Both the position numbers and the translations under genes were made by a program. This document shows, piece after piece, positions 2,247 through 32,000 of a stretch of 32,000 nt of DNA. The DNA comes from Desulfocapsa sulfexigens DSM 10523. Lineage in GTDB: Bacteria > Desulfobacterota > Desulfobulbia > Desulfobulbales > Desulfocapsaceae. The stretch is taken from NCBI RefSeq assembly GCF_000341395.1, contig NC_020304.1, positions 2,910,001 through 2,942,000 on the forward strand, given 5' to 3'. The notes beneath the pieces are model-generated. The model worked only from the letters and a program-made list of their open reading frames with translations, was not told the DNA's origin and ran no database searches. How positions within the stretch are numbered: position 1 is the first letter of the stretch; every line of letters begins with the position of its first letter.

Positions 2247-4052
2247 ATGACTCTCCCTATAATTTTAGTCATGGCTGTTTTGGGCCTGGCAATTTTACTC
2301 TTTATATTTGAATGGGTGCGTGTCGATGTAGTCGGCATCATCATGATGATTATTCTTCCTCTGCTAGGGTTGGTCACCCCTAAAGAGGCCATCAGCGGTC
2401 TTTCAAGTAATGCTGTTGTTTCAATTATTGCCGTTATCATTATCGGTGCCGGCCTGGATAAAACAGGAGCCATGAATTCTCTGGCAAGGATACTGCTTAA
2501 ATTTGCAGGCAAGAGTGAGTCTCGAATTATGATCCTCATTTCTGGTACCGTAGCCTTTATTTCGAGTTTTATGCAGAACATTGGGGCTGCTGCGCTGTTT
2601 ATGCCTGCTGCTAAACGAATCTGTCGTCAGACCAACATTCCTGTTTCACGGATTCTTATGCCCATGGGATTCTGTGCTATTATCGGAGGCTGTATCACCC
2701 TGATCGGATCCAGTCCACTAATTTTAATGAACGATGTAATGAAAATTTCCGATCCTAATGTCGAGGCCTTCGGACTTTTTTCAGTGACTCCTATTGGGCT
2801 CGCTTTAATTGCTGCAGCCCTGATCTATTTTGTCCTTTTTGGTCGGTTTATTCTTCCTGCAGGTGGAGGTAGTGAGGCAGGAAGTGGCCCTATGTCCCAG
2901 GAGCTTGAAAGAACTTATCGAGACATTGGTAATCTTTTCGAGATTCAGATCCCTGAATCTTTTGAAGGGCCAAAAACACTTAAAGAACTTGAGATAAGAC
3001 CGATTTTTTTTACAAGTATTTTAAGTATCGCTTCAAAAGGTGGCGTAATAATATCTACTCCTGATTTTGCTGACACCATCCAGGGTGGGGATACGGTTAT
3101 CGTTGAAGGTCCCTCGGATCTGGTTGCTAAAATGGCCCAATCCTTTAACTGGGTGATCAAAGAAGATCTCGAGGTATTTGCTGAGAGTTTTTCTCCAAAC
3201 AATGCCGGAATTTTGGAAGCAATCATTTCACCCCGTTCCGAGTTGGTCGGTAACACTCTTCGCAGTTTCTCTTTCAGGAAAAAAAATGATGTCACACCAC
3301 TGGCCATATTCAGGAATAATAAAACCTATGTAGGTGATATCTCGACCATGACTTTACGAACCGGTGATGCACTGCTTTTACAGGGGCCCTGGGAAAAGTT
3401 TCATTACCTGAAGGAGCGTACAGATCTGGTCTTTACCGAAGAAGTCCAGGGAGAAATTCTTCGCACTGACAAAGTAAAATTTGCAGTTGGTGGTCTGGTG
3501 CTGGCCCTGACCATGATCCTTGGTTTTCATGTGCAGCTCTCCATTGCTCTTCTGGCAGGAGCGATGTTTATGGTATTAACCAAGGTGCTTTCCATTGATG
3601 AAGCTTACGAGTCTGTGGACTGGATGACTGTTTTCCTTCTTGGTGGTCTTATTCCCCTAGGTATAGCCTTTGAGAAAACAGGTGCCGCCAAGCTTATTGC
3701 CGAGACTATTATGAGTGGCCTGGGGGCAGTGTCTCCACTGATTCTCCTGAGCGTTATTGCGATTCTAACATCTTTTTTCACCCTTGTTGCCTCCAATGTG
3801 GGAGCGACGGTATTAATGGTTCCCCTGGCTATGAATATGGCTGGTGCGGCCGGAGCAGACCCTCGTATTGCAGCTTTAGTTGTGGCGGTTGCCTGTTCAA
3901 ACACCTTTATTCTTCCTACTCATCAGGTTAATGCTTTGATCATGAGACCGGGAGGGTATAAGACGAAAGATTATTTTCGGGCTGGTGCGGGAATGACAGT
4001 CCTTTATCTGGTGGTCATGATGGCTTCAATTGCTCTTTTTTATGGTCTGTAA
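2247..4052 (+). CDS. SLC13/DASS-family anion permease with two central TrkA-C (RCK_C) domains
   Basis: 601-aa ORF with two multi-helix hydrophobic halves. A ~200-aa soluble insert contains two repeats of the TrkA-C type (...GDTVIVEGPSDLV... and ...GDALLLQGPWEKF...). This is the YfbS-like architecture. Confidence 0.88.
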   Translation: MTLPIILVMAVLGLAILLFIFEWVRVDVVGIIMMIILPLLGLVTPKEAISGLSSNAVVSIIAVIIIGAGLDKTGAMNSLARILLKFAGKSESRIMILISGTVAFISSFMQNIGAAALFMPAAKRICRQTNIPVSRILMPMGFCAIIGGCITLIGSSPLILMNDVMKISDPNVEAFGLFSVTPIGLALIAAALIYFVLFGRFILPAGGGSEAGSGPMSQELERTYRDIGNLFEIQIPESFEGPKTLKELEIRPIFFTSILSIASKGGVIISTPDFADTIQGGDTVIVEGPSDLVAKMAQSFNWVIKEDLEVFAESFSPNNAGILEAIISPRSELVGNTLRSFSFRKKNDVTPLAIFRNNKTYVGDISTMTLRTGDALLLQGPWEKFHYLKERTDLVFTEEVQGEILRTDKVKFAVGGLVLALTMILGFHVQLSIALLAGAMFMVLTKVLSIDEAYESVDWMTVFLLGGLIPLGIAFEKTGAAKLIAETIMSGLGAVSPLILLSVIAILTSFFTLVASNVGATVLMVPLAMNMAGAAGADPRIAALVVAVACSNTFILPTHQVNALIMRPGGYKTKDYFRAGAGMTVLYLVVMMASIALFYGL

Positions 4053-4064
4053 ACAAAACAGCAG

Positions 4065-4096
4065 TACCCAGCTATCAGAGGTGTGATAGCTGGGTA
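4065..4096 (+). terminator. Perfect 13-bp stem hairpin between the SLC13 and NhaD genes (weak terminator or processing/stability element)
   Basis: TACCCAGCTATCA-gaggtg-TGATAGCTGGGTA. It is followed by ATTGCTTATC, which is not a strong U tract. Confidence 0.4.
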
Positions 4097-4124
4097 TTGC
4101 TTATCAAATATAAGGATACTTGAA

Positions 4125-5543
4125 ATGAAAACTTTTCTCTTGTGCTGTGTCACCTTACTTGGTGGTGCAGGTTCGGCATTTGCTGCAGGACATGGAGGTG
4201 GGGAGCCAGCGATGGCACTAACAGGCACAGCTTTTGGGTATGCCTCCCTGGCTCTTTTTGTTCTTGCTTATCTTCTTGTTATTTTTGAGGAACAGACTCA
4301 TCTGCGTAAAAGTAAGCCGGTAATGATGGCAGCAGGATTTATCTGGGTGTTGCTTGCCATTTGCTTCCGCGTGGCTGGCATCCCTCCTGAAGAGGCCCAT
4401 CATGCGATTATTAATAATATAACCGAATATGCCGAGCTGCTACTCTTTTTACTGGCGGCCATGACCTATATCAACTCCATGGATGAACGCAATGTCTTCC
4501 AGGCACTCCGTTCCTGGCTTGTTTCCAGGGGTTTTTCTTTACGTATTGTCTTCTGGATTACAGGTTTTCTTGCATTTGTAATATCCCCCATTGCTGACAA
4601 CCTGACCACGGCCCTGCTTATGGGGGCAGTGGTTATGGCGGTTGCTCCGAACAATAAAAAATTTGTCGCCCTTGCCTGTATCAATATCGTGGTTGGTGCC
4701 AATGCAGGTGGGGCTTTTTCCCCCTTTGGCGACATCACCACCCTGATGGTGTGGCAGAAGGGACAGGCTGCTTTTGGTGAGTTTTTTTTCCTCTTTATAC
4801 CGGCCCTAATCAACTGGCTTATCCCGGCGATCATTATGAGTCTCTTCGTTTCTAAAGAAACGCCTGAGGCCTTGAGCGAAAATGTCAGCATGAAATTCGG
4901 TGCCAAGAGAATAATATTTCTTTTTATGATGACAATTGTGACCGCAGTGTCCTTTCATAATTTCCTTGATCTTCCACCTGCAGCGGGCATGATGCTGGGG
5001 CTTTCCTATTTGGGCTTTTTCTCTTACTACATCAAAGTTAAGGAAAAACGTGCCCTTGAGTATGACAAACCTCTGGGTATTTCCACAAGTGGAAAAGATG
5101 ATCCCTTTGATATTTTTCAGAAAGTTGCTCGGGCCGAATGGGATACACTCCTCTTCTTTTACGGTGTTATTCTCTGCGTTGGTGGCCTTTCACAATTTGG
5201 TTACCTGGCTCTCGTTTCCCATCAGATGTACGATGGGCTTGGTGCCACAAACGCCAATATTCTGGTTGGTATTCTCTCGGCAATTGTTGATAATATTCCG
5301 GTTATGTTTGCTGTCTTGACCATGGATCCAGCCATGTCACTTGGCCAGTGGTTGCTGGTCACTCTAACTGCTGGAGTTGGTGGAAGTCTTCTTTCCATCG
5401 GTTCTGCAGCCGGTGTGGCCTTAATGGGAACCGCCCGCGGAACCTATACCTTTGGTGCCCATTTGAAATGGACACCGATTGTAGCTCTTGGCTATGCCGC
5501 AAGTATTTATGCACATATGTTCATCAATAATCGTCTTTTTTAA
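4125..5543 (+). CDS. nhaD: NhaD-family Na+/H+ antiporter (ArsB/NhaD permease superfamily)
   Basis: Polytopic membrane ORF with NhaD-like blocks (AAMTYINSMDERNVFQALRSWLV, ISPIADNLTTALLMGAVV, DNIPVMFAVL). I prefer the ATG at 4125 (MKTFLLCCVTLLGGAGSAFA, signal-like) over the track start at 4083, which lies inside the upstream hairpin. Confidence 0.82.
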   Translation: MKTFLLCCVTLLGGAGSAFAAGHGGGEPAMALTGTAFGYASLALFVLAYLLVIFEEQTHLRKSKPVMMAAGFIWVLLAICFRVAGIPPEEAHHAIINNITEYAELLLFLLAAMTYINSMDERNVFQALRSWLVSRGFSLRIVFWITGFLAFVISPIADNLTTALLMGAVVMAVAPNNKKFVALACINIVVGANAGGAFSPFGDITTLMVWQKGQAAFGEFFFLFIPALINWLIPAIIMSLFVSKETPEALSENVSMKFGAKRIIFLFMMTIVTAVSFHNFLDLPPAAGMMLGLSYLGFFSYYIKVKEKRALEYDKPLGISTSGKDDPFDIFQKVARAEWDTLLFFYGVILCVGGLSQFGYLALVSHQMYDGLGATNANILVGILSAIVDNIPVMFAVLTMDPAMSLGQWLLVTLTAGVGGSLLSIGSAAGVALMGTARGTYTFGAHLKWTPIVALGYAASIYAHMFINNRLF

Positions 5544-5962: not shown

Positions 5963-7993
5963 ATGAGCTTTTTTTCAAAGAAAGAAACTGAAACCAAGTT
6001 GTCGGGGGCTGAGAGGCCGGTCAGTTCCCGGCAGCTTGATGATTTGAAAACCAGAGTGGCTAATACCGATTTGCCGCTCTCGGTTGCCCGTCAAGTTACG
6101 AGCGAAATGGAACACCTGGGGAAAATTGACCCATTTGTTGCCGAATTTTCCATAGGAGTCACCTATGTCGAATTACTGCTCTCTCTACCGTGGTTCAAGG
6201 AAACTAAAGATGATCTTGATCTCAACCGCGCTGAGACTATCATGGCCTCACACCATTACGGGCTCGACGCGGTCAAGACACGGATTCTGGAATACCTTGC
6301 TGCAAAGAGTTTGAAGAATCATCAGAAGTCCAGGATACTCATTGTAGATGACGAAGAAGTTGCCCGCAATAATCTTCATCTCTATTTTACAGGTATGGGC
6401 CATACCGTGCGGGTTGCTGTCAATGGTGTGGATGCCCTGCAGCAGGTAGAAGAGAACGATCATTTTGACGTGATGATCACAGATCTGAAAATGGATAAAA
6501 TGGATGGACTTACCCTGATTGACAGGATTAGTAAGGCCTCTCCTGAGACCAGTGTGATTATGGTTACCGGATACGCAACGGTTGCTAATGCTGTCGATGC
6601 CATGCGCAAAGGTGCTACCCATTATTTATCAAAGCCGGTTCAGCTAGACAAACTGAAAGAGACTGTTGAGGAGGTACTGCAGAAACAGAAGAAATTGCAG
6701 ATCAGCCAGGGGCCGGTGCTTTGTTTTGCAGGTCCCCCTGGTACTGGGAAAACATCCATAGGACAGGCAGTGGCTACTTCCCTTGGGCGAAAATTTATTC
6801 GGATATCCATGGGAGGCTTACGTGATGAGGCTGAAATTCGAGGCCATCGGAGAACCTATGTGGGTGCCATGCCAGGGCGTATCATCAGTGAAATCAAACG
6901 GGCTGGAGTGAATAACCCCTGTATCATGCTTGATGAGATTGACAAGATCGGCCAGGATTTTCGCGGTGATCCTGCATCTGTTCTTTTGGAAGTACTCGAT
7001 CCGGAACAGAATGGGAGTTTTAGTGATCAGTACCTTGATGTTCCCTTTGACCTTTCCGGCGTCCTCTTTATCGCCACCGCAAATGACATTAGTAAGTTGC
7101 CAGGTCCTCTGCTGGATCGACTGGAGGTGATCGATTTCTCCAGCTATTCTTTAGAGGAAAAACTGGTTATTGCCAGGAAATATCTTCTCCCCAAGCAGGT
7201 AGCTGCAAACGGCCTTGGTGAGAGTAATCCACAGATCAGTGACAAGGCCTTTGAAAAACTTATTATTGAATATACACAGGAGTCTGGAGTACGGGGCCTC
7301 ACCCGGGAAATTGGAACAATCTGTCGTAAACTCGCCCTTCAGGTTATTCAGAAAAATGCAACTGTCTTGCCCGAAATAGATGAGAGTTCGATCACGTCCC
7401 TGCTCGGGCCGCGTAAGTATCGGCAGGAAGCCGCTGATGGTGAAGACAGGGTGGGGGTGGTAACCAGTTTGGTCTGGACTCGTTTTGGTGGTGGAATTAT
7501 GTTTATTGAAGCTTTGCGGATGCAGGGCAACACCAATCTTATACTTACCGGATCACTCGGGGAAGTGTTACGTGAATCTGCTCAAACGGCTCTTAGTTAC
7601 ATAAGGAGTAATGCCAAGCAACTGGGTATTGATCCTGACTTCTATGAACATTCTGACATTCATGTTCATCTTCCTGCTGGTGCAGTTTCAAAAGACGGCC
7701 CTTCAGCAGGTTTGGCCATTGGTATTTCTCTTATCTCCCTTCTTACTGGGCGTCCGGTATGTCGTACGGTCTCAATCACTGGTGAGATGACCTTGACTGG
7801 TTATGTCCTGCCAGTGGGTGGAATTCGTGAGAAACTTCTGGCTGCTCTTCGTTCCGGTTGCACCAAGGTTGTTCTGCCTGCAGAAAATCGTGAGGATGTA
7901 GCCTCATTAAGTGATGATGTTACCGGACACCTGGAACTGGTTTATGTTGAAACATTGGACGATGCAATTCCACATCTGCTTTGTGCTCAGTAA
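5963..7993 (+). CDS. LonA-type ATP-dependent protease lacking the N-terminal LON domain, with an inserted receiver (REC) domain
   Basis: Residues 1-120 resemble the Lon pre-AAA helical region (HHYGLDAVKTRILEYLAAK). Walker A is GPPGTGKTS, followed by RGHRRTYVGAMPGRII, DEIDK and GDPASVLLEVLDPEQN. The protease domain has KDGPSAGLA (catalytic Ser) and GGIREKLLAA (Lys). Confidence 0.9.
   Translation: MSFFSKKETETKLSGAERPVSSRQLDDLKTRVANTDLPLSVARQVTSEMEHLGKIDPFVAEFSIGVTYVELLLSLPWFKETKDDLDLNRAETIMASHHYGLDAVKTRILEYLAAKSLKNHQKSRILIVDDEEVARNNLHLYFTGMGHTVRVAVNGVDALQQVEENDHFDVMITDLKMDKMDGLTLIDRISKASPETSVIMVTGYATVANAVDAMRKGATHYLSKPVQLDKLKETVEEVLQKQKKLQISQGPVLCFAGPPGTGKTSIGQAVATSLGRKFIRISMGGLRDEAEIRGHRRTYVGAMPGRIISEIKRAGVNNPCIMLDEIDKIGQDFRGDPASVLLEVLDPEQNGSFSDQYLDVPFDLSGVLFIATANDISKLPGPLLDRLEVIDFSSYSLEEKLVIARKYLLPKQVAANGLGESNPQISDKAFEKLIIEYTQESGVRGLTREIGTICRKLALQVIQKNATVLPEIDESSITSLLGPRKYRQEAADGEDRVGVVTSLVWTRFGGGIMFIEALRMQGNTNLILTGSLGEVLRESAQTALSYIRSNAKQLGIDPDFYEHSDIHVHLPAGAVSKDGPSAGLAIGISLISLLTGRPVCRTVSITGEMTLTGYVLPVGGIREKLLAALRSGCTKVVLPAENREDVASLSDDVTGHLELVYVETLDDAIPHLLCAQ
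6332..6682 (+). other. Receiver domain inserted within the Lon ORF (residues ~124-240)
   Basis: RILIVDDEE (acidic pair), DVMITDLKMDKMDG (phospho-acceptor Asp ~174), VIMVTGY (Thr) and YLSKP (Lys). All canonical REC signature positions are present. Confidence 0.85.
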
Positions 7994-15670: not shown

Positions 15671-16702
15671 ATGAGTACATCTGACCAGAACATACATTCC
15701 AGTAATGAGCTAGTTGATATGTTTTCACGAACTATCTCCTATCTTCGCCTCTCTCTGACAGATCGCTGTAATCTCCGCTGTGTCTACTGTATGCCTGTCG
15801 ACAATGATAAGGGGCTCGAAGTGCTGCAGCATGAAGATTTGCTGAGCTATGAAGAGCTTCTGCGTATAGTCAAGTTGGTGGTGGGTATGGGGATGAATAA
15901 AATTCGTCTCACAGGCGGAGAGCCATTGGTGCGGCGTGGAGTTATGAATTTTATTGAGAGCTTGTCGCAAATTAATGGACTTGATGAGATTCGCCTGACC
16001 ACCAATGGTGTTCTGTTGCATGAAAAAGCAGAGGGATTGTATCGTGCAGGTATTCGTAAACTGAATATTTCACTGGACAGTATGCGCCCCGAGCGTTTCA
16101 TGAAAATAACGGGAGTTGATCTTTTTCACAGAGTCTGGCAGGGAATCGAAACTGCAGAGCGTCTTGGTTTTGACGTCAAACTCAATGTGGTTGCAATGAA
16201 AGGGGTAAATGATGACGAGTTTGTTGATTTTGCCAGACTTGCAGTGGAAAAACCGTATCAGGTCCGCTTTATCGAGTTTATGCCGGTGGGCGACAGATCC
16301 ACCTGGAATGAAGCCTCCTATATTTCTTCAACTGAACTCAAGAAACGTATCGGAGATATTGGAGTCCTTGAGCCGCTGCCAGGATCCAAGATGGATGGTC
16401 CTGCCAGAGTTTATTCACTCACAAGCGTTGACGGCTTACAGGGGAGAGTTGGTTTTATCAGCCCGATAAGCCACCATTTCTGTGACACCTGCAATCGCCT
16501 GCGCCTCACTTCAGCCGGGAGGTTGAGAGCTTGTCTTCTGAATGATAAGGAGGCAGATCTTAAGAGTCTGCTCAGGAAAGGAGCCACGGATGACGAGATT
16601 AAAGGGCTTATCAGGCAGACTATCCTTGATAAGCCCAAGGGGCATACTCTGGCTGAAGATCAGGCCAGATGCAGTGGCCAGATGTCACGCATCGGAGGAT
16701 GA
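15671..16702 (+). CDS. moaA: GTP 3',8-cyclase (molybdenum cofactor biosynthesis protein A)
   Basis: Radical-SAM motif LTDRCNLRCVYCMP, LTGGEPL, and the C-terminal auxiliary cluster CDTCNRLRLTSAGRLRAC. The protein ends in GG. Confidence 0.94.
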   Translation: MSTSDQNIHSSNELVDMFSRTISYLRLSLTDRCNLRCVYCMPVDNDKGLEVLQHEDLLSYEELLRIVKLVVGMGMNKIRLTGGEPLVRRGVMNFIESLSQINGLDEIRLTTNGVLLHEKAEGLYRAGIRKLNISLDSMRPERFMKITGVDLFHRVWQGIETAERLGFDVKLNVVAMKGVNDDEFVDFARLAVEKPYQVRFIEFMPVGDRSTWNEASYISSTELKKRIGDIGVLEPLPGSKMDGPARVYSLTSVDGLQGRVGFISPISHHFCDTCNRLRLTSAGRLRACLLNDKEADLKSLLRKGATDDEIKGLIRQTILDKPKGHTLAEDQARCSGQMSRIGG

Positions 16703-17773: not shown

Positions 17774-17991
17774 TTTGCTTCCTTTCTCAGAAATAGTATT
17801 GTTTAAATCTAGAGTGATTTATGAAGAACAACGGCGGAATGTAGGTCAAAGAAAAAAGTATGTCAAGTTGTAAAAAATGACTGGAATAAGCGGTTCTCCC
17901 GAGATATAGTCATTTTTCGTGCAAATTTATGCGTTTCCTGACATATGCATTTAACAGTGTTAAATTGTTTTATAAAAAGAGAAATCCAGTC

Positions 17992-19170
17992 ATGAGTGAA
18001 AAACCAGTACAAAAGACATACGAAGAAATTAATGCCAGAATCAAAGCGGGTGAGGCTGTAATTGTAACTGCTGAAGAGATGGTCGGTATTGTTAAGGCTA
18101 AGGGCGCTGAAGGTGCTGCCAGGGAGGTTGACGTCGTTACCACCGGAACCTTCTCTCCCATGTGTTCATCTGGGGCATTCTTAAACTTTGGTCAGATGAC
18201 TCCCACCATCAAAGCATCCAGAGTCTGGATTAACAAGGTTTCTGCTTATGCAGGACTAGCAGCAGTAGATTGTTATATCGGTGCAACAGAACCCGTCGAG
18301 GACGATCCTTTAAATAAATTGTATCCAGGAGAATTTCGATATGGCGGTGGCCATGTCATAGAGGATCTTCTTGCCGGAAAGAAGGTGTTTCTTGAGGCAA
18401 AAGCCTATGGAACTGATTGTTATCTGGCAAGGAAAATGAAAAAAGAGCTTACTCTTGCTGAGCTTCCCTATGCCATGCTCTGTAATCCAAGAAACGGGTA
18501 CCAGAATTATAACTGTGCTGTGAACCTTTCCGATAAAGCGGTCCATACCTATATGGGAACCCTGAAACCCCATTGCAGAAATGCTAATTATTGTAGTGCC
18601 GGTGAGTTGAGTCCTTTGTTTAATGATCCGCATTACAAGACCATTGGAATCGGAACCAGAATTTTTCTTGGTGGCGGTATCGGCTATGTGACCTCACACG
18701 GAACTCAACATAATCCAAATGCTCCAAGGCATAAAAATGGTACCCCTGTTCGCCCTGCTGGCACAATCATGGTGCAGGGAGATATGAAACAAATGTCGTC
18801 ACGTTTTATTCGTGGAATTTCAATTCTCGGATACGGAAACACCATGGCCGTGGGCCTGGGAATACCAATTCCAATTTTGAATGCTGAAATGGCTGCCTAT
18901 ACAGGGGTGTCGGATGATGAACTGTTTACTCAGGTTATAGATTACGGATATGATTATTCAAATGGTATAAACAGAACCTATGGTGAAGTGAGCTATGGCC
19001 AACTGAAAACTGGAACCATAGAGGTGAATGGGAAAAGCGTTCCAACGGCTCCATTATCAAGCCTGCCTATGGCTAGAGAAATTGCTGAAACCCTTAAGTC
19101 CTGGATGATGGATGGTAAGTTTTTTCTCAACAAACCGGCAGAACTTCTACCCGATGCCGACAACTCGTAA
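17992..19170 (+). CDS. COG1900 / DUF39 homocysteine-biosynthesis-type protein, without CBS or ferredoxin domains
   Basis: KTYEEINARIKAGEAVIVTAEEM...VDVVTTGTFSPMCSSGAFLNFG is the characteristic N-terminal region of COG1900 proteins. I chose the start at MSEKP (17992); the track start at 17929 adds 21 non-conserved residues. Confidence 0.82.
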   Translation: MSEKPVQKTYEEINARIKAGEAVIVTAEEMVGIVKAKGAEGAAREVDVVTTGTFSPMCSSGAFLNFGQMTPTIKASRVWINKVSAYAGLAAVDCYIGATEPVEDDPLNKLYPGEFRYGGGHVIEDLLAGKKVFLEAKAYGTDCYLARKMKKELTLAELPYAMLCNPRNGYQNYNCAVNLSDKAVHTYMGTLKPHCRNANYCSAGELSPLFNDPHYKTIGIGTRIFLGGGIGYVTSHGTQHNPNAPRHKNGTPVRPAGTIMVQGDMKQMSSRFIRGISILGYGNTMAVGLGIPIPILNAEMAAYTGVSDDELFTQVIDYGYDYSNGINRTYGEVSYGQLKTGTIEVNGKSVPTAPLSSLPMAREIAETLKSWMMDGKFFLNKPAELLPDADNS

Positions 19171-24427: not shown

Positions 24428-25804
24428 ATGACGAAAGGAATAGTGGTGGCCGGACTTGCCGGAGGATCAGGGAAAAGCGTAGTTTCTGTTGGGTTAACTG
24501 CGGCCCTTGCACGGCAGGGAAAATTTGTGGTCCCCTTCAAGAAGGGACCGGATTACATTGATGCGGGATGGATGAAACTTGCTGCTGGAAGGAACTGTTA
24601 TAATCTTGATCCCTATTTAATGAGCGAAGAAAGCATAAAAGCTTCACTGCTTTGCCACAGTGAAGGTGCCGATCTTGTCGTCCTGGAAGGTAACCGCGGT
24701 CTGTTTGATGGGGTAAATGTTGATGGTGGCTATTCCACAGCCGAACTGGCTCTTTCTCTCAATCTTCCAATATTGTTGGTGGTGAACTGTACCAAGACGA
24801 CTCGAACCGTTGCGGCAATGGTTCTGGGCTGTATGAAACTTGATGAACGCGTGGATATTCGTGGCGTAGTCCTGAATCAGATTGGCACCAAAAGGCATCA
24901 GTCCATCGTCACTCAGGCAGTGGAAAAGTACACTGGCCTTCCTGTCCTGGGGGCAATTCCACGAATGAAATATGATATTTTCCCCATGCGTCACCTGGGT
25001 GTTACTCCACACCAGGAGTACGAGGGAAGTGAAGAGGCAATGCAGTTGCTTGCGGAGACTGCCGCTGAACACCTTGACCTCGAACGAATTCAGGAAGTAA
25101 TGGAGCCGATAGGTTGCCGAAAAACAGTGGTGCCCGCCCATCCTCCTGAGAATAAACTTCGTATCGGCCTGTTAATGGACGCAGCCTTTCAATTCTATTA
25201 TTCCGAAAATCTGGAAGCCCTTGAGCAGGAGGGAGCTGAATTGATTGCCATTGATGCCATGGTTGAGGATGTTTTGCCGGAGCTTGATGGTCTGTACATT
25301 GGTGGAGGTTTTCCTGAAACCAGTGCCGGGGCCCTCGCGGCTAATACCTCTTTTCGTGACTCAATAAAAACTGCTGCCGAGACAGGATTGCCGATTTATG
25401 CTGAGTGTGGTGGGCTGATTTACCTTGGTGAGTCTATAGAACTGGAAGGAGAGGTGTATCCTCTTGCCGGTGTTTTTCCCGTCCGTTTTGGTATGTCTCA
25501 AAAACCACAGGCCCATGGCTACTCGATTTTTACGGTAGAGGGAGAAAATCCTTTTTATGAAAAAGGTTCTGAAATAAAGGGACATGAGTTTCGCTATTCC
25601 ACTATTATTGACTGGCCTGGAGACTCTGATGATCTGCCATTGAAGATGACAAGGGGAGTGGGCTTTTCGAAGGGACGTGAAGGGCTGGTTATGAATAATG
25701 TTCTGGCTCTTTACACCCATATACATGCCCTGGGGACACCCGAGTGGGCCAGGGGCTTTATGAGGCGCTGTCGTGAGGTAAAAGAAGAGGGTCTGCGGGA
25801 GTAG
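24428..25804 (+). CDS. cbiA: Cobyrinate a,c-diamide synthase family amidase (CbiA/CobB; a DsrN-like role cannot be excluded)
   Basis: N-terminal P-loop VVAGLAGGSGKSVVSVGL and C-terminal glutamine amidotransferase domain with the nucleophile context YAECGGLIYL. Confidence 0.85.
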   Translation: MTKGIVVAGLAGGSGKSVVSVGLTAALARQGKFVVPFKKGPDYIDAGWMKLAAGRNCYNLDPYLMSEESIKASLLCHSEGADLVVLEGNRGLFDGVNVDGGYSTAELALSLNLPILLVVNCTKTTRTVAAMVLGCMKLDERVDIRGVVLNQIGTKRHQSIVTQAVEKYTGLPVLGAIPRMKYDIFPMRHLGVTPHQEYEGSEEAMQLLAETAAEHLDLERIQEVMEPIGCRKTVVPAHPPENKLRIGLLMDAAFQFYYSENLEALEQEGAELIAIDAMVEDVLPELDGLYIGGGFPETSAGALAANTSFRDSIKTAAETGLPIYAECGGLIYLGESIELEGEVYPLAGVFPVRFGMSQKPQAHGYSIFTVEGENPFYEKGSEIKGHEFRYSTIIDWPGDSDDLPLKMTRGVGFSKGREGLVMNNVLALYTHIHALGTPEWARGFMRRCREVKEEGLRE

Positions 25805-25842: not shown

Positions 25843-26058
25843 TTAATCCTCGGTGTGACAAACAATATCCGGTGTCAGAAACCAGATAGCTGCCGGTTTG
25901 CAGGACCAGACTTTGTCATCTTCTTCGACTACACAGTCTCCGAATTTCCACCCGAATTTTTCCAGATGCATGGTGAGCGTTTTTTTTGATGCTTCGTACA
26001 CATCCCAATCAAAACCCTCAAGGTCAGAGACGCAAATCATTTCAATTTCTTTCTTCAT
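25843..26058 (-). CDS. Small acidic hypothetical protein (71 aa, 4 Cys) at the distal end of the Mo-oxidoreductase cluster
   Basis: Internal Met start MKKEIEMICVSDLEGFDWD... was chosen. The track start at 26130 adds 24 residues running to within 21 nt of the upstream gene's stop. No family recognised and the SD is weak. Confidence 0.45.
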   Translation of the reverse strand: MKKEIEMICVSDLEGFDWDVYEASKKTLTMHLEKFGWKFGDCVVEEDDKVWSCKPAAIWFLTPDIVCHTED

Positions 26059-26151
26059 ATTCAGTCTCACTGTATTTATTTGATAATTTGTAAAGGTAAT
26101 GCCGGATGGCCGGTAACGACCATCCAGCATATTATTTTACAATATCATATA

Positions 26152-26604
26152 CTATATTTCCTGTAAGGTGACAAATTTCAGGGCATGGGTTGTACATTTC
26201 GTGACGCAGGCAGGTTTCAGCCCTGCATCCACCCGATCCATGCAATAGTCACACTTCACAGCCTTTTTTGTCTCAGGGTTCATCTGGGGAATTGTCCACG
26301 GGCAGGCACCGGCACAGGCCATGCAGCCAATACAGGCCTCTTCATTTATAAAAACAATACCATCCGGACGCTTGATCATGGCCTTGGTAGGACAAATGGG
26401 CACACAGAACGGTTCATCACAGTGGTAACAGGAACGAAAGGAAAATTCGGTTTTAGGGACCCCTTTTATAGTAGTTAAGGTTTCGTGATCGATTTCACAG
26501 AGGTATGGGCCTACCGGAAGGCTTTTATTCGTTTTACAGTGAACCTCGCAGCCGTGACAGCCTATACATCTTCTGGAATTGAGGTAGATCATGTATTTGT
26601 TCAT
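26152..26604 (-). CDS. Four-cluster [4Fe-4S] ferredoxin-type electron-transfer subunit (DmsB/PsrB family)
   Basis: Cys groups are CIGCHGCEVHC, CYHCDEPFCVPICP, CIGCMACAGACP and CDYC...C...C. There is a 4-nt overlap with the catalytic subunit gene and no signal peptide. Confidence 0.9.
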   Translation of the reverse strand: MNKYMIYLNSRRCIGCHGCEVHCKTNKSLPVGPYLCEIDHETLTTIKGVPKTEFSFRSCYHCDEPFCVPICPTKAMIKRPDGIVFINEEACIGCMACAGACPWTIPQMNPETKKAVKCDYCMDRVDAGLKPACVTKCTTHALKFVTLQEI

Positions 26605-28715
26605 AATTCGACCCTCCTCTTAGGATTACGGACACTGCGGCGCACGAGAACAAAAGACTCACAAAGATTTATTGCACCTCCTGCCTGATCCCAGTCATCA
26701 AGCTTGCCAATCATTAATTTCTGGTCACTGATTCCGGCGTGGTAAGAGCGGGTCTGCAATGGAATCTGCTTTCCGAATCCATGGACCATATAGACAGCTT
26801 CCGGATGAATGTAGTCTACAACGTGTGCATGCATTGGTCCTGAGTAACTTTCGTCTTCCGACGAAACGTTCACCAGGTCGCCATTGGCGATACCAAGTTT
26901 GTCGGCAGCCCTTGTATTAATCCACAGACTGTTTTCGGGCATCAGCTCCGACAAGAGCGGGTTGTTTGTCGTGTGACCATGACTGTGCACTGCGGAACGC
27001 CCGTACACCAGCCTGAACATACCCTTAGGTGGTTTAATGGGGGACTGATATTCCTTTAAAGAGGGTAGGCCGGCATCTTCCAGTTTTTTACTGATGATTT
27101 CAATTTTCCCGGATGGGGTATTAAACTGTCCTTCCAGTTTTAGAGGATCATACATTATGGGTTCGTCTGTGAGTGGAACAAAACCTTTCGCATCAAAATC
27201 AGCAATTGTAAATCCTGTCGGCTCCAGTTGCCAGCTCCAGAGTTCCTCTGCGCTGTTGTATGGGAAGTACTCTCCGATATCAACTCTTTCTGCCAGCTGT
27301 TTAAATATCCACCAGCCTGGTTTTGTGTCAAATTCCGGTTCCACGGCTCGTTTTCGTATGGCAAGACGAGGTTTTAAACTTTTCTGCACACAGATGGTAC
27401 TTTCCCGTTCCAGATAAGTTGACTCCGGGAGTATAACGTCTGAAAACCAGCCGAATTCACTGTAATGGGTGTCAATGGAAACCAGAAGGTCACAGTGTTC
27501 AAAGGACATTTTCTGACGCTGCGGATCGGGCATTCCGGAGAATGGGTCGTGCCGCATTGCGATCCAGGCTTTAACAGGATAGGGATCCTCTTTTTCCATG
27601 GCATCGAAAAACAGGTGAGCGAGACCCGGCCCTTTATCAAAATGCTTATATTTCCAGCCGACACCATCAGCACGTTTTATATCTGGTTTTGGACAGTCAA
27701 GTGCCCGAAGTCCTTTTACGCCACAGTCCCCAGGGCCTTTAGGGATAAGGAGTCCACCCTTCTGTTCAATATTCCCCATAAGAACATTTAAGATATGGAG
27801 ACCTCGACTGGCATAGAAAGAATCCTTGTAGCGGGACAGATTCCAGCCAGGGTGAAAAATCACCTTTGGCATTGCTGGTATTATTTCGTCAATAAAGGCA
27901 TGGATGGCCTTTGCTTTGATACCACATTCCTTTGCCGCCCAGTCCGGGGTGTACTGTTCTACGAAATACGTAAGTTCATCAAAACCAGAGACATAGCGTT
28001 CGACAAAATCAGCATCGTAGGCATCTCTTCTGATCAGTTCATGAATCATCGCAAGGATAAGGGCGTAGTCTGTCCCTGGTCTTACCTGAAAAAAACGATC
28101 CGCCTTGATTCCTGTCATAGTCTGGCGAACGTCAACATAGGTCAGTTTTCCGCCATTTTCCAGCATATCCATAGTCTGGAGGTTTTCACCAATACGCAGT
28201 GAGGCAAACATATTACGGCCGAAGAGGATCAGATGTTTTGCGTTTTTTATGTCATAGATAAAACCTTTACGTCCTACGCCATTAATGGAAAGACTTGCAT
28301 GGTGAGTGTTTCGTCCGCAGGTGCAGTCATGGTTGGTGTAGTTTGGAGATCCAAAGGCATGGATAAATGTTTTATACATATTTTGCCATGGGCCACCCCT
28401 TGATGAAAGAACCACGGATTCCGGACCATATTCAGTTTTGATCTTTTTCAATTTATTACTGATATAATCAAGTGCCGTCGGCCAGCTGACTTTCTGCCAG
28501 CGTCCCTCACCGCGGGCTCCCTCTCTAATGAGAGGTTGCTGCGGTCTTTCACGGTCAGCAACAAGAGCAGGCCCTGCAGATCCCTTGGCACAGAGAGCGC
28601 CACCGAGGATATGCTGGTTTCCTTCTATCCATGTTACTTTATTATTTTCTGACTCCACGCGGATGGGACAGCGCACGGTGCACATCCCACACATGGAGTA
28701 AACAGATTTTTTCAT
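26601..28715 (-). CDS. Molybdopterin (bis-MGD) oxidoreductase catalytic subunit, PsrA/PhsA-like, without a Tat signal
   Basis: The N-terminus starts directly with the FS0 cluster motif CGMCTVRCP...C (C-x2-C-x3-C-x27-C). MopB-type blocks are present (GPESVVLSSRGG, NHDCTCGRN, ILFGRN, RPGTDYAL, and a C-terminal barrel with GDLVNV). Strong GAGGAGGA SD. Confidence 0.9.
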   Translation of the reverse strand: MKKSVYSMCGMCTVRCPIRVESENNKVTWIEGNQHILGGALCAKGSAGPALVADRERPQQPLIREGARGEGRWQKVSWPTALDYISNKLKKIKTEYGPESVVLSSRGGPWQNMYKTFIHAFGSPNYTNHDCTCGRNTHHASLSINGVGRKGFIYDIKNAKHLILFGRNMFASLRIGENLQTMDMLENGGKLTYVDVRQTMTGIKADRFFQVRPGTDYALILAMIHELIRRDAYDADFVERYVSGFDELTYFVEQYTPDWAAKECGIKAKAIHAFIDEIIPAMPKVIFHPGWNLSRYKDSFYASRGLHILNVLMGNIEQKGGLLIPKGPGDCGVKGLRALDCPKPDIKRADGVGWKYKHFDKGPGLAHLFFDAMEKEDPYPVKAWIAMRHDPFSGMPDPQRQKMSFEHCDLLVSIDTHYSEFGWFSDVILPESTYLERESTICVQKSLKPRLAIRKRAVEPEFDTKPGWWIFKQLAERVDIGEYFPYNSAEELWSWQLEPTGFTIADFDAKGFVPLTDEPIMYDPLKLEGQFNTPSGKIEIISKKLEDAGLPSLKEYQSPIKPPKGMFRLVYGRSAVHSHGHTTNNPLLSELMPENSLWINTRAADKLGIANGDLVNVSSEDESYSGPMHAHVVDYIHPEAVYMVHGFGKQIPLQTRSYHAGISDQKLMIGKLDDWDQAGGAINLCESFVLVRRSVRNPKRRVEL

Positions 28716-28748
28716 TTGAATTCCTCCTCTAAAGAAAACCGATCTGAT

Positions 28749-29372
28749 TTACTTGGCAGCAACCACATGATTAATATTCAACTCCTTTATTATTTTGTTG
28801 CGTCTGTGTCGTTCAATTGCTTTTTTTAGAAATGTCCAGCCAATGTAGGAGGACACGAGTGAGACTAAATAGAAAAACAGAGATCCAATAAACACGGGGT
28901 CTCCGCTGGATGAGCCAAACTGCACAATGTACTCCCTACCGGTGAGTTCCATCAGCCTTTCAGGTCGATAATATGCATTTACATAGGACAGCACCATCAG
29001 GATTGGTAGATACATTGTGGCAAAACTCATTAACAGACCTTCAAGAAAATAATCATAATAGGCACGGTTAAGTTTTGCCTGATCAATGTTTTTTGCCATC
29101 CGTGATCCCTTTTCACGGTCTTCACAACGCATTGCCTCCTCTCTGACACCAAGCCAGTAGTTGAACTCTTCTTCCAGCATGATATGCCTTTTAGTGCGAC
29201 ATTTTTTCCCAAGAAACTTGGTGGAGAAAACTGTAGTGAGGGCAAGTAGTACAAGTATGAAAGCCGGTCCGGTGAGGTTGTGAATCGGGGAAAGCAGATT
29301 ATCAACCATTGCTGCAAAAGAAAGAATGGCGGAGTAAATATACTCCCACATGATATCTAAGAAACGTTCCAT
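28749..29372 (-). CDS. Hypothetical 3-4 TM membrane protein with a long cytosolic coiled-coil loop (EMC3/DUF106-like topology)
   Basis: 207 aa. TM helix ~35-54, then a basic segment (KKCRTKRH) and a ~55-aa charged helical loop. Next come TM LLMSFATMYLPILMVLSYV, a short soluble hairpin, TM IGSLFFYLVSLVSSYIGW and a basic tail. Confidence 0.65.
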   Translation of the reverse strand: MERFLDIMWEYIYSAILSFAAMVDNLLSPIHNLTGPAFILVLLALTTVFSTKFLGKKCRTKRHIMLEEEFNYWLGVREEAMRCEDREKGSRMAKNIDQAKLNRAYYDYFLEGLLMSFATMYLPILMVLSYVNAYYRPERLMELTGREYIVQFGSSSGDPVFIGSLFFYLVSLVSSYIGWTFLKKAIERHRRNKIIKELNINHVVAAK

Positions 29373-29406
29373 GGTGTATCCATCAGCTTAATAATAAGTG
29401 GAAACT

Positions 29407-29432
29407 GGTTCACAACCCTTAAGTTGTGAACC
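29407..29432 (-). other. Perfect 10-bp intercistronic hairpin
   Basis: GGTTCACAAC-ccttaa-GTTGTGAACC, between the TauE-fusion gene and the 207-aa gene. Confidence 0.45.
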
Positions 29433-29462
29433 AATTTCATTTAATGGGTCTGACTGTTATCC

Positions 29463-31187
29463 CTAGATCCAGTACTCAATCTTGAGGAAACGGAAGAACA
29501 GGAAGAATAATGTACAGGCAAGAACGATCTTGAGCGTTTTCTCACTGAACATCTTCTGACAACGACTACCAAGCATACCACCTGCAAAACCACCGATGAT
29601 GATTGCTCCTGCTAGTACCATATCAGGGAGATATCCGTTCAGAACATATCCGATAAAAGAACCAATACTGGAGAAGCAGGTTCCGACGAGGGATATGGGA
29701 ACGGCAACATACATTGGAAGGGCGGCAATTGTGGTCATCATTGGAACGAGGAGGAAGCCCCCACCAATACCAAATGCTCTGGAAACAATACCTACAATAA
29801 TACCAAGGATTGCAAAGAGCAGTGGATTGATACGGAATTCCTCGCCCCAGAATTTAAAGCGGTAATCGGTAATGCCGGTTTTGATCGGTTCGATGGAACC
29901 CATTTCCATTGCTTCACCGGTTTCTTTTGCTTTTTTGACTGCAGCGTTGAACTTCTGGGTCATAGCCTTGATGTTCTTCCGCTTGTTCATTGCACCGGGA
30001 GTCAGTTCCATAAGAGTCTTGATACCCATGATAACAACCAGAACACCAAGCCACTCTTTATAGGCAGTCATGGAGACATATTGGGTCACATATGTACCTA
30101 ACCAGATGGAACCGATAAAAATACCTGCACCAAAAGAAAGACCAACCGGCCAGGCAACACGTTTCTCAACCACGGCAAAACGGTAAAAGGAACCAAGTGG
30201 AGAGAACAGGGTAAGGGCGATATTTGATGGACGAAGAACGTTGGCAGCATTGATACCTACGGGACCAGCTGTCTGAACAAACAAAGCCTGGAAAGCACCC
30301 ATCAACATACCACCGGCAGCACCGATCATTGAAAAATAGGTACCAACAAGAATAGCACCGATAACCACGACCAGAGGATTCATGTAACGATAGCCTTTCG
30401 CAAGCCAGAAACCGTTCTTTTCTATGGTGTAAGATCCGCTTTTGGTGCCGTTTACATATACATCAAAACCGGTGTCAGGCGCGGTATGACGAAATGATTT
30501 GAAAGAGGCTTTGAAATTTCCGGTGGCTTTGTCGAGATTTATGGATGTGCCCTTATCCCAGTAATTACCGCTTGAGGCATCGCCGATGACGGAGCGGGCA
30601 AAAATGACAACTTTACCCTTTTTATTCCCTTCTTTAACAACGGTATCTATACCATATGAATTCTCGTGGCCCCACTTGAACATATTCCACTGTTCAGCGG
30701 TTTTGATTGGACCAAGCATGTCTTTGGCGGCAACCTCATCAAAATTCTTTTTCAGCTTGAACATTGTGGTGTTGTAGAGTCCCTGGCCTTTTTTAAAGAG
30801 AAAGGAGGGGCCACCAAATTTCTTATCAACATCACTACCAAAAGCTTCTCTGTTGGTTGTCAACATGTAGTAAAGAGGGGGAATCTCAGTATCCATTGTA
30901 AAACCGGCCTTTTCACCATTCTGAGGCAGCTTCTTTTTTTCGTAGGTGCCGACGGATGATTGTCCGGCAAATTCTGTGACATTACCTTTGAACATTGCCT
31001 GCTGTGCAACAGCGATATAAAGGTCCTGGCCTGGCTCAATTTGTCCCTCTATGGTAATCGTGTCACCAGCCTTGTATTTATCTGCTGAGACTGTAGCACC
31101 GGCAAATGAACTGCTTTGCAAGGCTAAAAGCCAGATTGAAATCACCATCAAGGATATTGATAGTTGCTTGCATTTCATCATCTTCAT
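29463..31187 (-). CDS. TauE/SafE-family anion channel fused to an N-terminal ~230-aa secreted domain
   Basis: Signal peptide MKMMKCKQLSISLMVISIWLLALQSSSFA|GA, then a soluble domain to ~residue 265. Two 4-TM TauE-type halves follow (GAAGGMLMGAF..., AFGIGGGFLLVPMM...), split by a ~60-aa charged loop. AAGGAGAT SD. Confidence 0.82.
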   Translation of the reverse strand: MKMMKCKQLSISLMVISIWLLALQSSSFAGATVSADKYKAGDTITIEGQIEPGQDLYIAVAQQAMFKGNVTEFAGQSSVGTYEKKKLPQNGEKAGFTMDTEIPPLYYMLTTNREAFGSDVDKKFGGPSFLFKKGQGLYNTTMFKLKKNFDEVAAKDMLGPIKTAEQWNMFKWGHENSYGIDTVVKEGNKKGKVVIFARSVIGDASSGNYWDKGTSINLDKATGNFKASFKSFRHTAPDTGFDVYVNGTKSGSYTIEKNGFWLAKGYRYMNPLVVVIGAILVGTYFSMIGAAGGMLMGAFQALFVQTAGPVGINAANVLRPSNIALTLFSPLGSFYRFAVVEKRVAWPVGLSFGAGIFIGSIWLGTYVTQYVSMTAYKEWLGVLVVIMGIKTLMELTPGAMNKRKNIKAMTQKFNAAVKKAKETGEAMEMGSIEPIKTGITDYRFKFWGEEFRINPLLFAILGIIVGIVSRAFGIGGGFLLVPMMTTIAALPMYVAVPISLVGTCFSSIGSFIGYVLNGYLPDMVLAGAIIIGGFAGGMLGSRCQKMFSEKTLKIVLACTLFFLFFRFLKIEYWI

Positions 31188-31329
31188 ATCTCCTTTTTTT
31201 GATTAATATAACCAGAGTGAAGCCCTATCGTACGTAGCTTCTCTTGTGCTCCTTCTGTTAAAGATCCCTTTTAATTCCTGGTTTCTACCTCCTTTTTAAT
31301 AGTCGCTGTTATCAAGATGTGTGGAAAGC

Positions 31330-31695
31330 TCATCTGGCGAGGTTGAGTACCTTTTCCACCTTCTCTTCAAGTTCATCACGATCAATAGGTTTCACACAAT
31401 ATTCATCGGCGCCCAGGCTGATAGCCTCACGGGCGGTTTCTACGGTCGGATATCCGGTAAGCATGATCACCCGAATGGAAGGATCAATTTTTTTTAGAAT
31501 TGCCAGGACCTCAACTCCATTCATCTTTTTTAACTTTATATCGAGAATGGCCAGGTCGATTTTGTGCATTTCAGCATGGGTAATGGCATCCTCTTCTTCT
31601 GTGAAGGTGTGAACTGTATGTCCTTTTTTACGAAGAATTTTTCCTATGAGCACTGTTGCATCGCGGATATCATCAAGGGTTATGATCTCTGCCAT
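31330..31695 (-). CDS. Single-domain (CheY-like) response regulator
   Basis: 121 aa, REC domain only: IITLDD, DLAILDIKLKKMNG, VIMLTGY, CVKP. Confidence 0.9.
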   Translation of the reverse strand: MAEIITLDDIRDATVLIGKILRKKGHTVHTFTEEEDAITHAEMHKIDLAILDIKLKKMNGVEVLAILKKIDPSIRVIMLTGYPTVETAREAISLGADEYCVKPIDRDELEEKVEKVLNLAR

Positions 31696-31708
31696 ATGTA
31701 CCTCTGAG

Positions 31709-32000
31709 TTACTGGTTCTTAGGTTTAAGGGTATCGCTATCCCTTTCGTCCGATATAGCTGGAAGGGTAACGTGAAAAGCTGTTCCGCCAGGGGATTTTC
31801 CGGTTTCGTTGTCAGTAACAGGAGACTCTATATCTATTCTTCCCTCGTGTTCCTGAATGATGCCGTAGGAGACTGAAAGACCAAGACCGGTACCTTTGCC
31901 AACGGGTTTGGTCGTGAAGAATGGGTCAAAAATAGAGGAAAGAATTTTTTCAGGTATACCGTGTCCGGTATCCATGACTGTTGCTATAACTTCTCTGCTG
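31709..32000 (-). CDS. Histidine kinase, C-terminal HATPase_c part (5' end lies outside the window)
   Basis: The frame is open to the window edge (…[19 protein letters not shown]..., [23 protein letters not shown]). The stop is 13 nt before the CheY-like gene. Confidence 0.85.

Follow-up and report, generated by a model that had tools for sequence, protein, structure and literature searches.

The last part of a 32,000-nucleotide (nt) stretch of the Desulfocapsa sulfexigens DSM 10523 genome (the window; contig NC_020304.1, positions 2,910,001 to 2,942,000) carries seven co-directional genes, all on the minus strand. They encode a molybdopterin protein of the Psr/Phs lineage that lacks an export leader (MopB; UWK_02642), its four-cluster ferredoxin, a TauE permease fusion, a DUF106-like membrane protein, a response regulator, a sensor kinase and a small cysteine-containing open reading frame (ORF). 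Judged from related loci, this cluster is the D. sulfexigens copy of a conserved module of Desulfobulbales and related Desulfobacterota. We propose that the leaderless MopB-ferredoxin pair (PhsAB), the TauE/DUF106 pair and the signalling proteins together perform cytoplasmic thiosulfate cleavage served by an oxyanion permease, a reading to which we give an even chance. The idea of a leaderless PhsAB has already been published (PMC13490349, PMC9751629, PMC13047784), and this core of the proposal is thus partly anticipated; what appears to be new is the four-way linkage of PhsAB, DUF8269-TauE, the DUF106-like protein and the signalling genes. Coordinates (Table 1) are those of the window unless a contig (L-number) is named.

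The gaps between the seven genes, computed from their coordinates, are exactly 13, 142, 90, 33, -4 and 93 nt, in agreement with the initial annotation, which had been made from the letters of the window. The 704-amino-acid (aa) molybdenum subunit is 100% identical to a D. sulfexigens DSM 10523 protein; the 207-aa protein encoded next to it is UWK_02643, and the subunit is therefore UWK_02642. Its Molybdop_Fe4S4, Molybdopterin and Molydop_binding domains all score above Pfam cutoffs and follow the Psr/Phs domain order. The MopB ORF opens at the first possible start codon, with a GGAGGA ribosome-binding site upstream. An in-frame TAA lies 12 codons before this start, so a longer N-terminus carrying a twin-arginine translocation (Tat) leader is impossible, and the candidate upstream start with such a leader was ruled out. 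The twin-arginine motif was also absent from all 81 orthologous maximal MopB ORFs checked. The ferredoxin gene, whose start overlaps the MopB stop by 4 nt, encodes a 150-aa protein (UWK_02641) with no hydrophobic leader and 17 cysteines, 16 of them within four cluster motifs; DmsB and TtrB models match it below their cutoffs.

We then placed the catalytic subunit within its superfamily. Its best NCBIfam model is PhsA (NF012032 equivalog; 535.1 bits against a cutoff of 694), and the match begins at profile position 41, just beyond the signal peptide. The closest solved relative is PsrA from Thermus thermophilus (2vpw; E 1e-112), whose chain aligns from residue 38 onward. On this protein the ArrA and TtrA models give far lower scores than PhsA. 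An identity as an aromatic hydroxylase or acetylene hydratase was considered and rejected, the corresponding structures matching far more weakly (E 7.8e-10 and 5e-51), and structures of formate dehydrogenases, ArrA and pyrogallol transhydroxylase likewise fell far behind PsrA. An exhaustive search over representatives of clusters at 50% identity showed that the nearest clusters (38-68% identity) all start with the Fe-S motif at residues 8-13, while remoter clusters bear classic RRxFLK leaders. In a neighbour-joining tree the leaderless proteins form one clade, sister to Tat-bearing Psr/Phs-like clades (bootstrap 100/100), and the representative resembling Thermus PsrA falls in a separate Tat clade. 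One member of the clade, P0244, is a natural single-chain fusion of MopB and ferredoxin of 921 aa. A leaderless sister cluster, P0246, is common in gut Bilophila. Altogether, these data confirm the first description of the enzyme as PsrA-like, with a four-cluster ferredoxin and no export signal on either subunit, and they place it away from enzymes of unrelated function such as aromatic hydroxylases, a grouping that the initial annotation had named as a possible objection.

The cofactor ligands are retained across this clade, while the substrate pocket differs. The FS0 cluster ligands Cys9, Cys12, Cys16 and Cys42 (CX2CX3C...C) are conserved across the leaderless clade, and Cys133, which aligns with C173 of 2vpw, is the Mo-ligand, present in all 5 close relatives and in 24/25 of the Tat-type ones. 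At the positions of R177 and R332 of Thermus PsrA, and of the arginine in the HTFAR motif, the window protein and its close relatives have T137, W291 and H581; arginine occupies these three pocket positions in 13-19 of the 25 Tat-type representatives, in a comparison that rests on alignment at 33-40% identity. The G-R-xxx-W-Y motif of exported enzymes becomes G-W-xxx-R-Y, a C-T-C motif surrounds the Mo-ligand Cys133, and additional Arg and His residues lie near the active site (R106, R135, H138, H139, R388 and H389). The remodelled region comprises MopB residues 106, 131-139, 291-295, 388-389 and 579-581. By alignment and tree, the 704-aa subunit represents a separate branch of the Psr/Phs lineage that lacks a leader and has a remodelled pocket; it is not merely a relocated PhsA.

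To describe the neighbourhood of these genes we scanned one genome per species, which returned at least 546 relatives, and drew neighbourhoods from the best 80 loci (65-93% identity), almost all from Desulfobulbales or other Desulfobacterota. Forty-five species-level loci had at least 8 kb on each side and are called well-flanked; the fractions out of 45 below refer to them. The ferredoxin gene lies directly downstream of MopB in 45/45. The receiver-only regulator is linked in 36/45, at 56-89% identity, and in 33 of the 80 loci it immediately precedes the MopB gene, at a distance of 11-112 bp. The PAS kinase and a membrane protein of ~165 aa (p165) are each linked in 35/45. A DUF8269-TauE fusion is linked in 29/45 and a plain TauE in 7 more, giving a TauE-family permease in 36/45, and the DUF106-like protein, which comes in two subfamilies (p207 and p208b), is linked in 26/45. 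A sigma-54 activator and a dual-specificity phosphatase-like protein are each found in 28/45, a PPDK_N/PEP-utiliser protein in 24/45 and a GAF-GAF-PAS-HisKA protein in 23/45. Gene order is heavily reshuffled while linkage is kept: the TauE and DUF106-like genes stand upstream, downstream or on both sides of phsAB, and in five loci phsAB sits between the two.

The reverse search, with the p207 family against metagenome contigs, gave the same association. A DUF8269-TauE gene lies directly upstream of p207 in 26 of the 26 loci with enough flank, and the leaderless MopB-ferredoxin pair was found within 10 kb in 19 of the 20 loci whose flanks reach at least 4.8 kb. Some of these loci carry a sister MopB that is only ~45% identical and divergently transcribed. 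Since the linkage holds in both directions, the objection that the neighbourhood might not be conserved in related genomes fails. No NrfD/PsrC-type gene was seen in the scanned ORFs of the window and none was recognised among the families recurring in at least 17 of the 80 related loci, as first noted for the window, an anchor elsewhere in the genome being possible. No electron-donor gene near phsAB recurs among the related loci. The linkage of PhsAB to the TauE/DUF106 pair appears to be unreported, and our literature search found no paper linking DUF106 or DUF8269 with TauE or PhsAB.

Several further genes lie around the module. The small Cys ORF, which has four cysteines and had first been counted in the cluster, was found by tblastn in only three of the 80 related loci (L005, L006 and L010, Desulfocapsa) and is absent even from a locus at 93% identity (L004); on this distribution it is lineage-specific and outside the conserved module. 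The GAF-GAF-PAS-HisKA protein (559 aa, without an ATPase domain) is often encoded between the regulator and the TauE gene (L007, L020 and others) and is not adjacent in the D. sulfexigens arrangement. Outside the window, L001 395-3852 encodes an 815-aa PPDK_N and PEP-utiliser protein and a dual-specificity-phosphatase-like protein. By gene count from UWK_02642, the former is probably UWK_02650, the "PEP synthase" of the genome paper. A 294-aa "family" produced by ORF clustering was discarded as an antisense artefact overlapping the kinase gene.

The two membrane proteins form a recurrent pair. The permease domain of the TauE fusion matches PF01925 at 102.9 bits (gathering cutoff 32.6) over residues 275-565, in keeping with its initial identification. 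It is preceded by a hydrophobic leader ending in FAGA and a hydrophilic segment of ~240 aa, the DUF8269 domain, which is found only as a fusion with TauE. An AlphaFold2 (AF2) model of DUF8269 (mean predicted confidence, pLDDT, 80) is rich in beta-strands; it had no significant match in the PDB, only weak and generic matches to antibody-like beta-sandwiches. The DUF106-like label first given to the 207-aa protein stands at the level of the family: PF01956 matches 17 of 23 p207 homologues at E<=1 (best 8.8e-6), and two homologues carry a precomputed PF01956 assignment. It does not stand for UWK_02643 itself, which has no Pfam match, PF01956 included. For the paralogous p208b the PF01956 score is 22.8 bits (cutoff 27.1), and its comparison with the p207 profile gives a probability of 83%. 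In the AF2 model of UWK_02643 (pLDDT 82), which has 3-4 transmembrane (TM) helices, the order is TM1, coiled coil, TM2 and TM3, and the cytoplasmic coiled coil of ~50 residues is the most conserved part of the protein. The top Foldseek match of this model is chain 8 of 7tut, a eukaryotic multipass translocon (probability 1.0, E 0.18, TM-score 0.46/0.52), a chain that is presumably TMCO1; no other Foldseek match was meaningful. A place for the 207-aa protein in the Oxa1 superfamily, as a DUF106/EMC3/TMCO1-like member, is plausible.

The genes for signalling continue past the end of the window, where we read the rest of the kinase gene, a gene for a membrane protein of ~157 aa and a sigma-54 activator gene. 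The complete kinase, read in the near-identical contig L001, has 522 aa in a PAS-HisKA-HATPase_c arrangement. The 121-aa regulator consists of a receiver domain without a DNA-binding output domain and therefore cannot itself bind DNA. The sigma-54 activator, read two genes past the window end in L001, has a receiver domain. The initial annotation had placed the cluster under the control of the kinase and its CheY-like partner: both are indeed co-conserved with the enzyme, and the part of the proposal that does not carry over is the control point itself, which, as the domain content indicates, is likely to be the sigma-54 activator rather than the adjacent regulator. We found sigma-54-type -24/-12 boxes ahead of the p165-kinase operon in 19/48 loci and ahead of the TauE gene in 8/38, but in none of 77 MopB upstream regions. 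In the D. sulfexigens-type contig the box TGGCATCACATGTGCA lies at L001 5450-5464, upstream of the operon for the ~160-aa membrane protein and the kinase. This distribution suggests that the co-conserved sigma-54 activator drives the module. A sigma-54 promoter inside the window's cluster was sought and rejected; no box was present in the intergenic gaps, and the sole match with one mismatch lies inside the TauE coding region. The long and perfectly paired stem-loop downstream of the TauE gene (29401..29438), within the 90 nt that separate it from the gene for the 207-aa protein, may be a terminator, an attenuator or an mRNA-stabilising element, and the cluster may be read as one long sigma-54 transcript with internal processing or as several units.

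What the sequences show is the gene content, the cytoplasmic orientation and lineage of the enzyme, the retention of its cofactor ligands and a tight evolutionary coupling of the parts. From these we infer how the module may work, including its substrate, its direction, its electron donor and any docking of PhsAB on the TauE/DUF106 pair. The core is a soluble, cytoplasm-facing heterodimer of the Psr/Phs-lineage molybdopterin protein and the four-cluster ferredoxin. The TauE/TSUP anion permease, with its periplasmic DUF8269 domain and its DUF106/TMCO1-like companion, would carry an inorganic sulfur oxyanion over the inner membrane, bringing thiosulfate in and/or sulfite or sulfate out. PhsAB would reductively split thiosulfate in the cytoplasm into sulfite and sulfide, or reduce sulfane sulfur instead, and sulfite and sulfide would enter the Apr/Sat and Dsr branches of disproportionation. 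Electrons would come from a soluble low-potential donor and not from quinol. The PAS kinase, the receiver-only regulator and the sigma-54 activator would control or accompany the module.

Published data from related organisms bear on this proposal. UWK_02642 was listed as a possible thiosulfate or tetrathionate reductase subunit in the 2013 genome paper, the only paper in which our search on locus tags found it named. Leaderless PhsAB without a subunit C is known from Desulfurella, Desulfolithobacter and Desulfobulbaceae (PMC9751629, PMC13047784), and the UWK_02642-ferredoxin pair shares the features of this cytoplasmic PhsAB-like group: the A subunit lacks a leader, the B subunit has four clusters, no C subunit accompanies them, and the leaderless proteins fall in one clade. 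A proteomic study from 2026 on Dissulfuribacter thermophilus counted a PhsAB-like enzyme of the cytoplasm among the proteins that rose most during thiosulfate disproportionation; TauE and a "transmembrane protein co-occurring with TauE", both encoded at another locus, rose too (PMC13490349). DITHS69_1989/1990 may be the DUF106-like and DUF8269-TauE orthologues. The in-situ transcripts singled out for Ca. Desulfobulbus rimicarensis include those of PhsAB, a TauE permease and TusA (PMC7117923).

A number of observations weigh against cytoplasmic thiosulfate cleavage by the module. The PhsA match falls short of its equivalog cutoff, and the loss of the pocket arginines together with the new Arg and His residues means that the substrate may differ. 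Thiosulfate reduction has an E0' of about -400 mV, and the thiosulfate reductase of Salmonella requires proton motive force. At so low a potential a soluble PhsAB would depend on a strong electron donor, for which there is no gene in the vicinity. The 17-bp hairpin and the 142-nt gap may divide the cluster into separate transcripts, and some genera that carry the module are not known as disproportionators. Levels of the 705-aa PhsA-2 in Desulfolithobacter dissulfuricans were higher under sulfate reduction than under thiosulfate disproportionation. Finally, no enzyme of the leaderless clade has been assayed to date.

Other explanations account for parts of these data. PhsAB could be a cytoplasmic sulfane-sulfur reductase, acting on polysulfide, persulfide or an organic trisulfide in the reductive branch of elemental sulfur (S0) disproportionation, with TauE/DUF8269 taking up or handing over sulfur species. 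The nearest solved relative, Thermus PsrA, is a polysulfide reductase, and the sulfane/sulfide couple makes far smaller demands than the reduction of thiosulfate. Sequence does not separate Psr from Phs (PMC13047784), and D. sulfexigens is specialised on S0 (PMC3739170). As a speculation from its model, the beta-rich periplasmic DUF8269 domain could bind extracellular sulfur species. However, R332 of Thermus PsrA, which we take to be the arginine proposed to bind polysulfide, corresponds to Trp in the leaderless clade, the TauE/TSUP family has been associated with oxyanions and sulfonates, not with polysulfide, and the induction in D. thermophilus was seen on thiosulfate, not S0. We consider this explanation credible but unlikely. 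The initial annotation had leaned on an analogy to SoeAB. In a further explanation along this line, the enzyme would work oxidatively, as a SoeAB-like cytoplasmic sulfite dehydrogenase in a route independent of adenosine 5'-phosphosulfate, with TauE exporting sulfate or sulfite. Such a sulfite oxidoreductase route has been proposed in disproportionators but lacks an assigned gene, and none was found for it in Desulfolithobacter dissulfuricans (PMC9751629); the enzyme here also faces the cytoplasm like SoeAB and is linked to a protein of the "sulfite exporter" family. The analogy nevertheless found no basis in the comparisons made here, in which the closest relatives are reductases of the Psr/Phs lineage (SoeA was not among the sequences compared), and there is no SoeC/NrfD anchor to hand electrons to quinone, which makes the oxidative route improbable in our estimate.

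A remodelled site could also serve a substrate outside the central sulfur pathway, such as tetrathionate, selenite, arsenate or a compound derived from organosulfonates, in detoxification or an accessory pathway. The systematic differences in active-site residues from Tat-type Psr/Phs enzymes would fit such a role, as would the expression in D. dissulfuricans, which is not specific to disproportionation, the leaderless sister cluster in Bilophila, an organosulfonate degrader, and the naming of TauE for sulfonate metabolism. We rate its chances as low: the module is common among sulfur-cycling Desulfobulbales and has been conserved vertically there, thiosulfate induces it in D. thermophilus, and the ArrA and TtrA models score far under PhsA. 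Finally, the genes might be mere neighbours, the TauE/DUF106 pair and the two-component system acting independently of PhsAB. Possible terminators lie between the genes, and D. thermophilus and 9/45 loci have no TauE gene less than 10 kb from phsAB. Yet the linkage outlasts extensive reshuffling of gene order and divergence to ~45% MopB identity and holds in both search directions, and the unlinked D. thermophilus genes are co-induced, which leaves chance proximity very improbable.

Cytoplasmic thiosulfate cleavage, our preferred reading, could take a more elaborate form, which we consider unlikely. DUF8269-TauE and the DUF106-like protein would form a membrane platform on which soluble PhsAB docks via the invariant coiled coil, the oxyanion being channelled to or from the Mo site and the receiver-only regulator gating the complex by protein-protein contact. 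If true, complex iron-sulfur molybdoenzymes would gain a new architecture that does without quinone, and a bacterial member of the Oxa1 superfamily would for the first time serve as a subunit of a redox/transport complex. The enzymes that start the disproportionation of thiosulfate and elemental sulfur have not been identified, and reliable marker genes are lacking (PMC12998232). The module is a concrete and widespread candidate for this poorly understood first step, and its linkage in Desulfocapsa joins two loci that in Dissulfuribacter lie apart yet are induced together. Should the parts act jointly, they would represent a new wiring of a molybdoenzyme without a quinol anchor and allow better annotation of "thiosulfate reductase" genes in surveys of the sulfur cycle.

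Table 1. Features of the D. sulfexigens cluster, in window coordinates
Feature	Coordinates	Strand	Evidence or remark
Sensor histidine kinase, C-terminus, 96 aa	31709..>32000	-	HATPase_c, E 5.8e-16; gene continues past window end
Receiver-only response regulator, 121 aa	31330..31695	-	Response_reg, E 1.3e-24, residues 4-114
TauE fusion membrane protein, 574 aa	29463..31187	-	PF01925 and DUF8269
DUF8269 periplasmic domain of TauE fusion, ~240 aa	about 30378..31106	-	PF26800 recorded for gene product
TauE/SafE (TSUP) permease domain, residues 275-565	about 29493..30365	-	PF01925
17-bp stem-loop followed by T-rich tail	29401..29438	-	Terminator-like match, 17 pairs, 6 G-C
Membrane protein UWK_02643, DUF106/EMC3/TMCO1-like, 207 aa	28749..29372	-	UniRef name is DUF106 protein
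Molybdopterin (bis-pyranopterin guanine dinucleotide, bis-PGD) catalytic subunit UWK_02642, PsrA/PhsA-like (MopB), 704 aa	26601..28715	-	Three MopB Pfam domains
Four-cluster [4Fe-4S] ferredoxin subunit, PhsB/DmsB-like, 150 aa	26152..26604	-	Fer4_11, E 3.4e-25
Small Cys ORF, 71 aa (95 aa from start 26130)	25843..26058	-	No Pfam/NCBIfam match

Elsewhere in the window, a moaA gene for molybdenum cofactor synthesis (15671-16702, +) lies ~10 kb from the molybdoenzyme, and a COG1900/HcyBio gene for sulfide-dependent homocysteine synthesis occupies 17929-19170 (+). A 458-aa CbiA/GATase_3 amidase, similar to cobyrinate a,c-diamide synthase or DsrN, is encoded at 24428-25804 (+), next to a DUF374 gene and uvrB and in convergent orientation to the cluster. 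At ~26000, where gene orientation turns from plus to minus, the sign of the GC skew flips, which is consistent with a strand-composition effect and does not point to foreign DNA. Two adjacent genes for anion transporters of the CitMHS/Na-sulfate-symporter type (2247-4052 and 4083-5543, +), the first with a TrkA_C regulatory domain, lie close to a HAMP histidine kinase gene (10-1482, -). A Lon protease (5963-7993, +) has a REC-AAA-Lon_C arrangement, with the receiver domain preceding the AAA domain; this domain order suggests phosphorylation-controlled proteolysis.

Each part of the module can be set beside a known system. The C-terminal 300 aa of the permease fusion are a clear TauE domain, as in the TauE/SafE family (TSUP; Transporter Classification, TC, 2.A.102), to which the fusion adds a signal peptide and the ~240-aa periplasmic DUF8269 domain; here it is also always paired with a DUF106-like protein. 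In its AF2 model the latter resembles DUF106, EMC3, TMCO1 and Get1 in having three core TM helices and a cytoplasmic coiled coil between TM1 and TM2, and its PF01956 matches are weak but consistent over two divergent subfamilies. The bacterial protein stands apart from these in being linked with a permease and a redox enzyme instead of general protein insertion, and in the very high conservation of its coiled coil. With SoeABC sulfite dehydrogenase the system shares, as in the analogy first drawn, a cytoplasm-facing molybdoenzyme with an Fe-S subunit and, as proposed here, a sulfur oxyanion as substrate, whereas SoeABC retains the NrfD-like membrane subunit SoeC and no SoeC-like gene is linked here.

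The exported enzymes PsrABC and PhsABC (Thermus thermophilus 2VPW; Salmonella PhsABC) have the same catalytic fold, domain order and four-cluster B subunit, and the FS0 cysteines and the Mo-ligand Cys are common to both. The enzyme described here differs from them in having neither a Tat signal nor an NrfD-type PsrC/PhsC, so that it is not linked to quinol and does not draw directly on proton motive force, and in the replacement of three conserved pocket arginines. It is much closer to the cytoplasmic PhsAB-like enzymes of the same phylum (D. thermophilus DITHS69_2028/2027; Desulfolithobacter PhsAB-1/-2), which likewise have two subunits, an A subunit of ~700 aa, no Tat leader and no PhsC; an orthologue from a Dissulfuribacterales metagenome-assembled genome is 67% identical (L061). 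The role proposed for those enzymes is likewise cytoplasmic thiosulfate cleavage. While D. thermophilus encodes TauE and its partner at another locus, D. sulfexigens and most Desulfobulbales have both linked to phsAB, in a set that also includes the receiver-only regulator, the PAS kinase and the sigma-54 activator.

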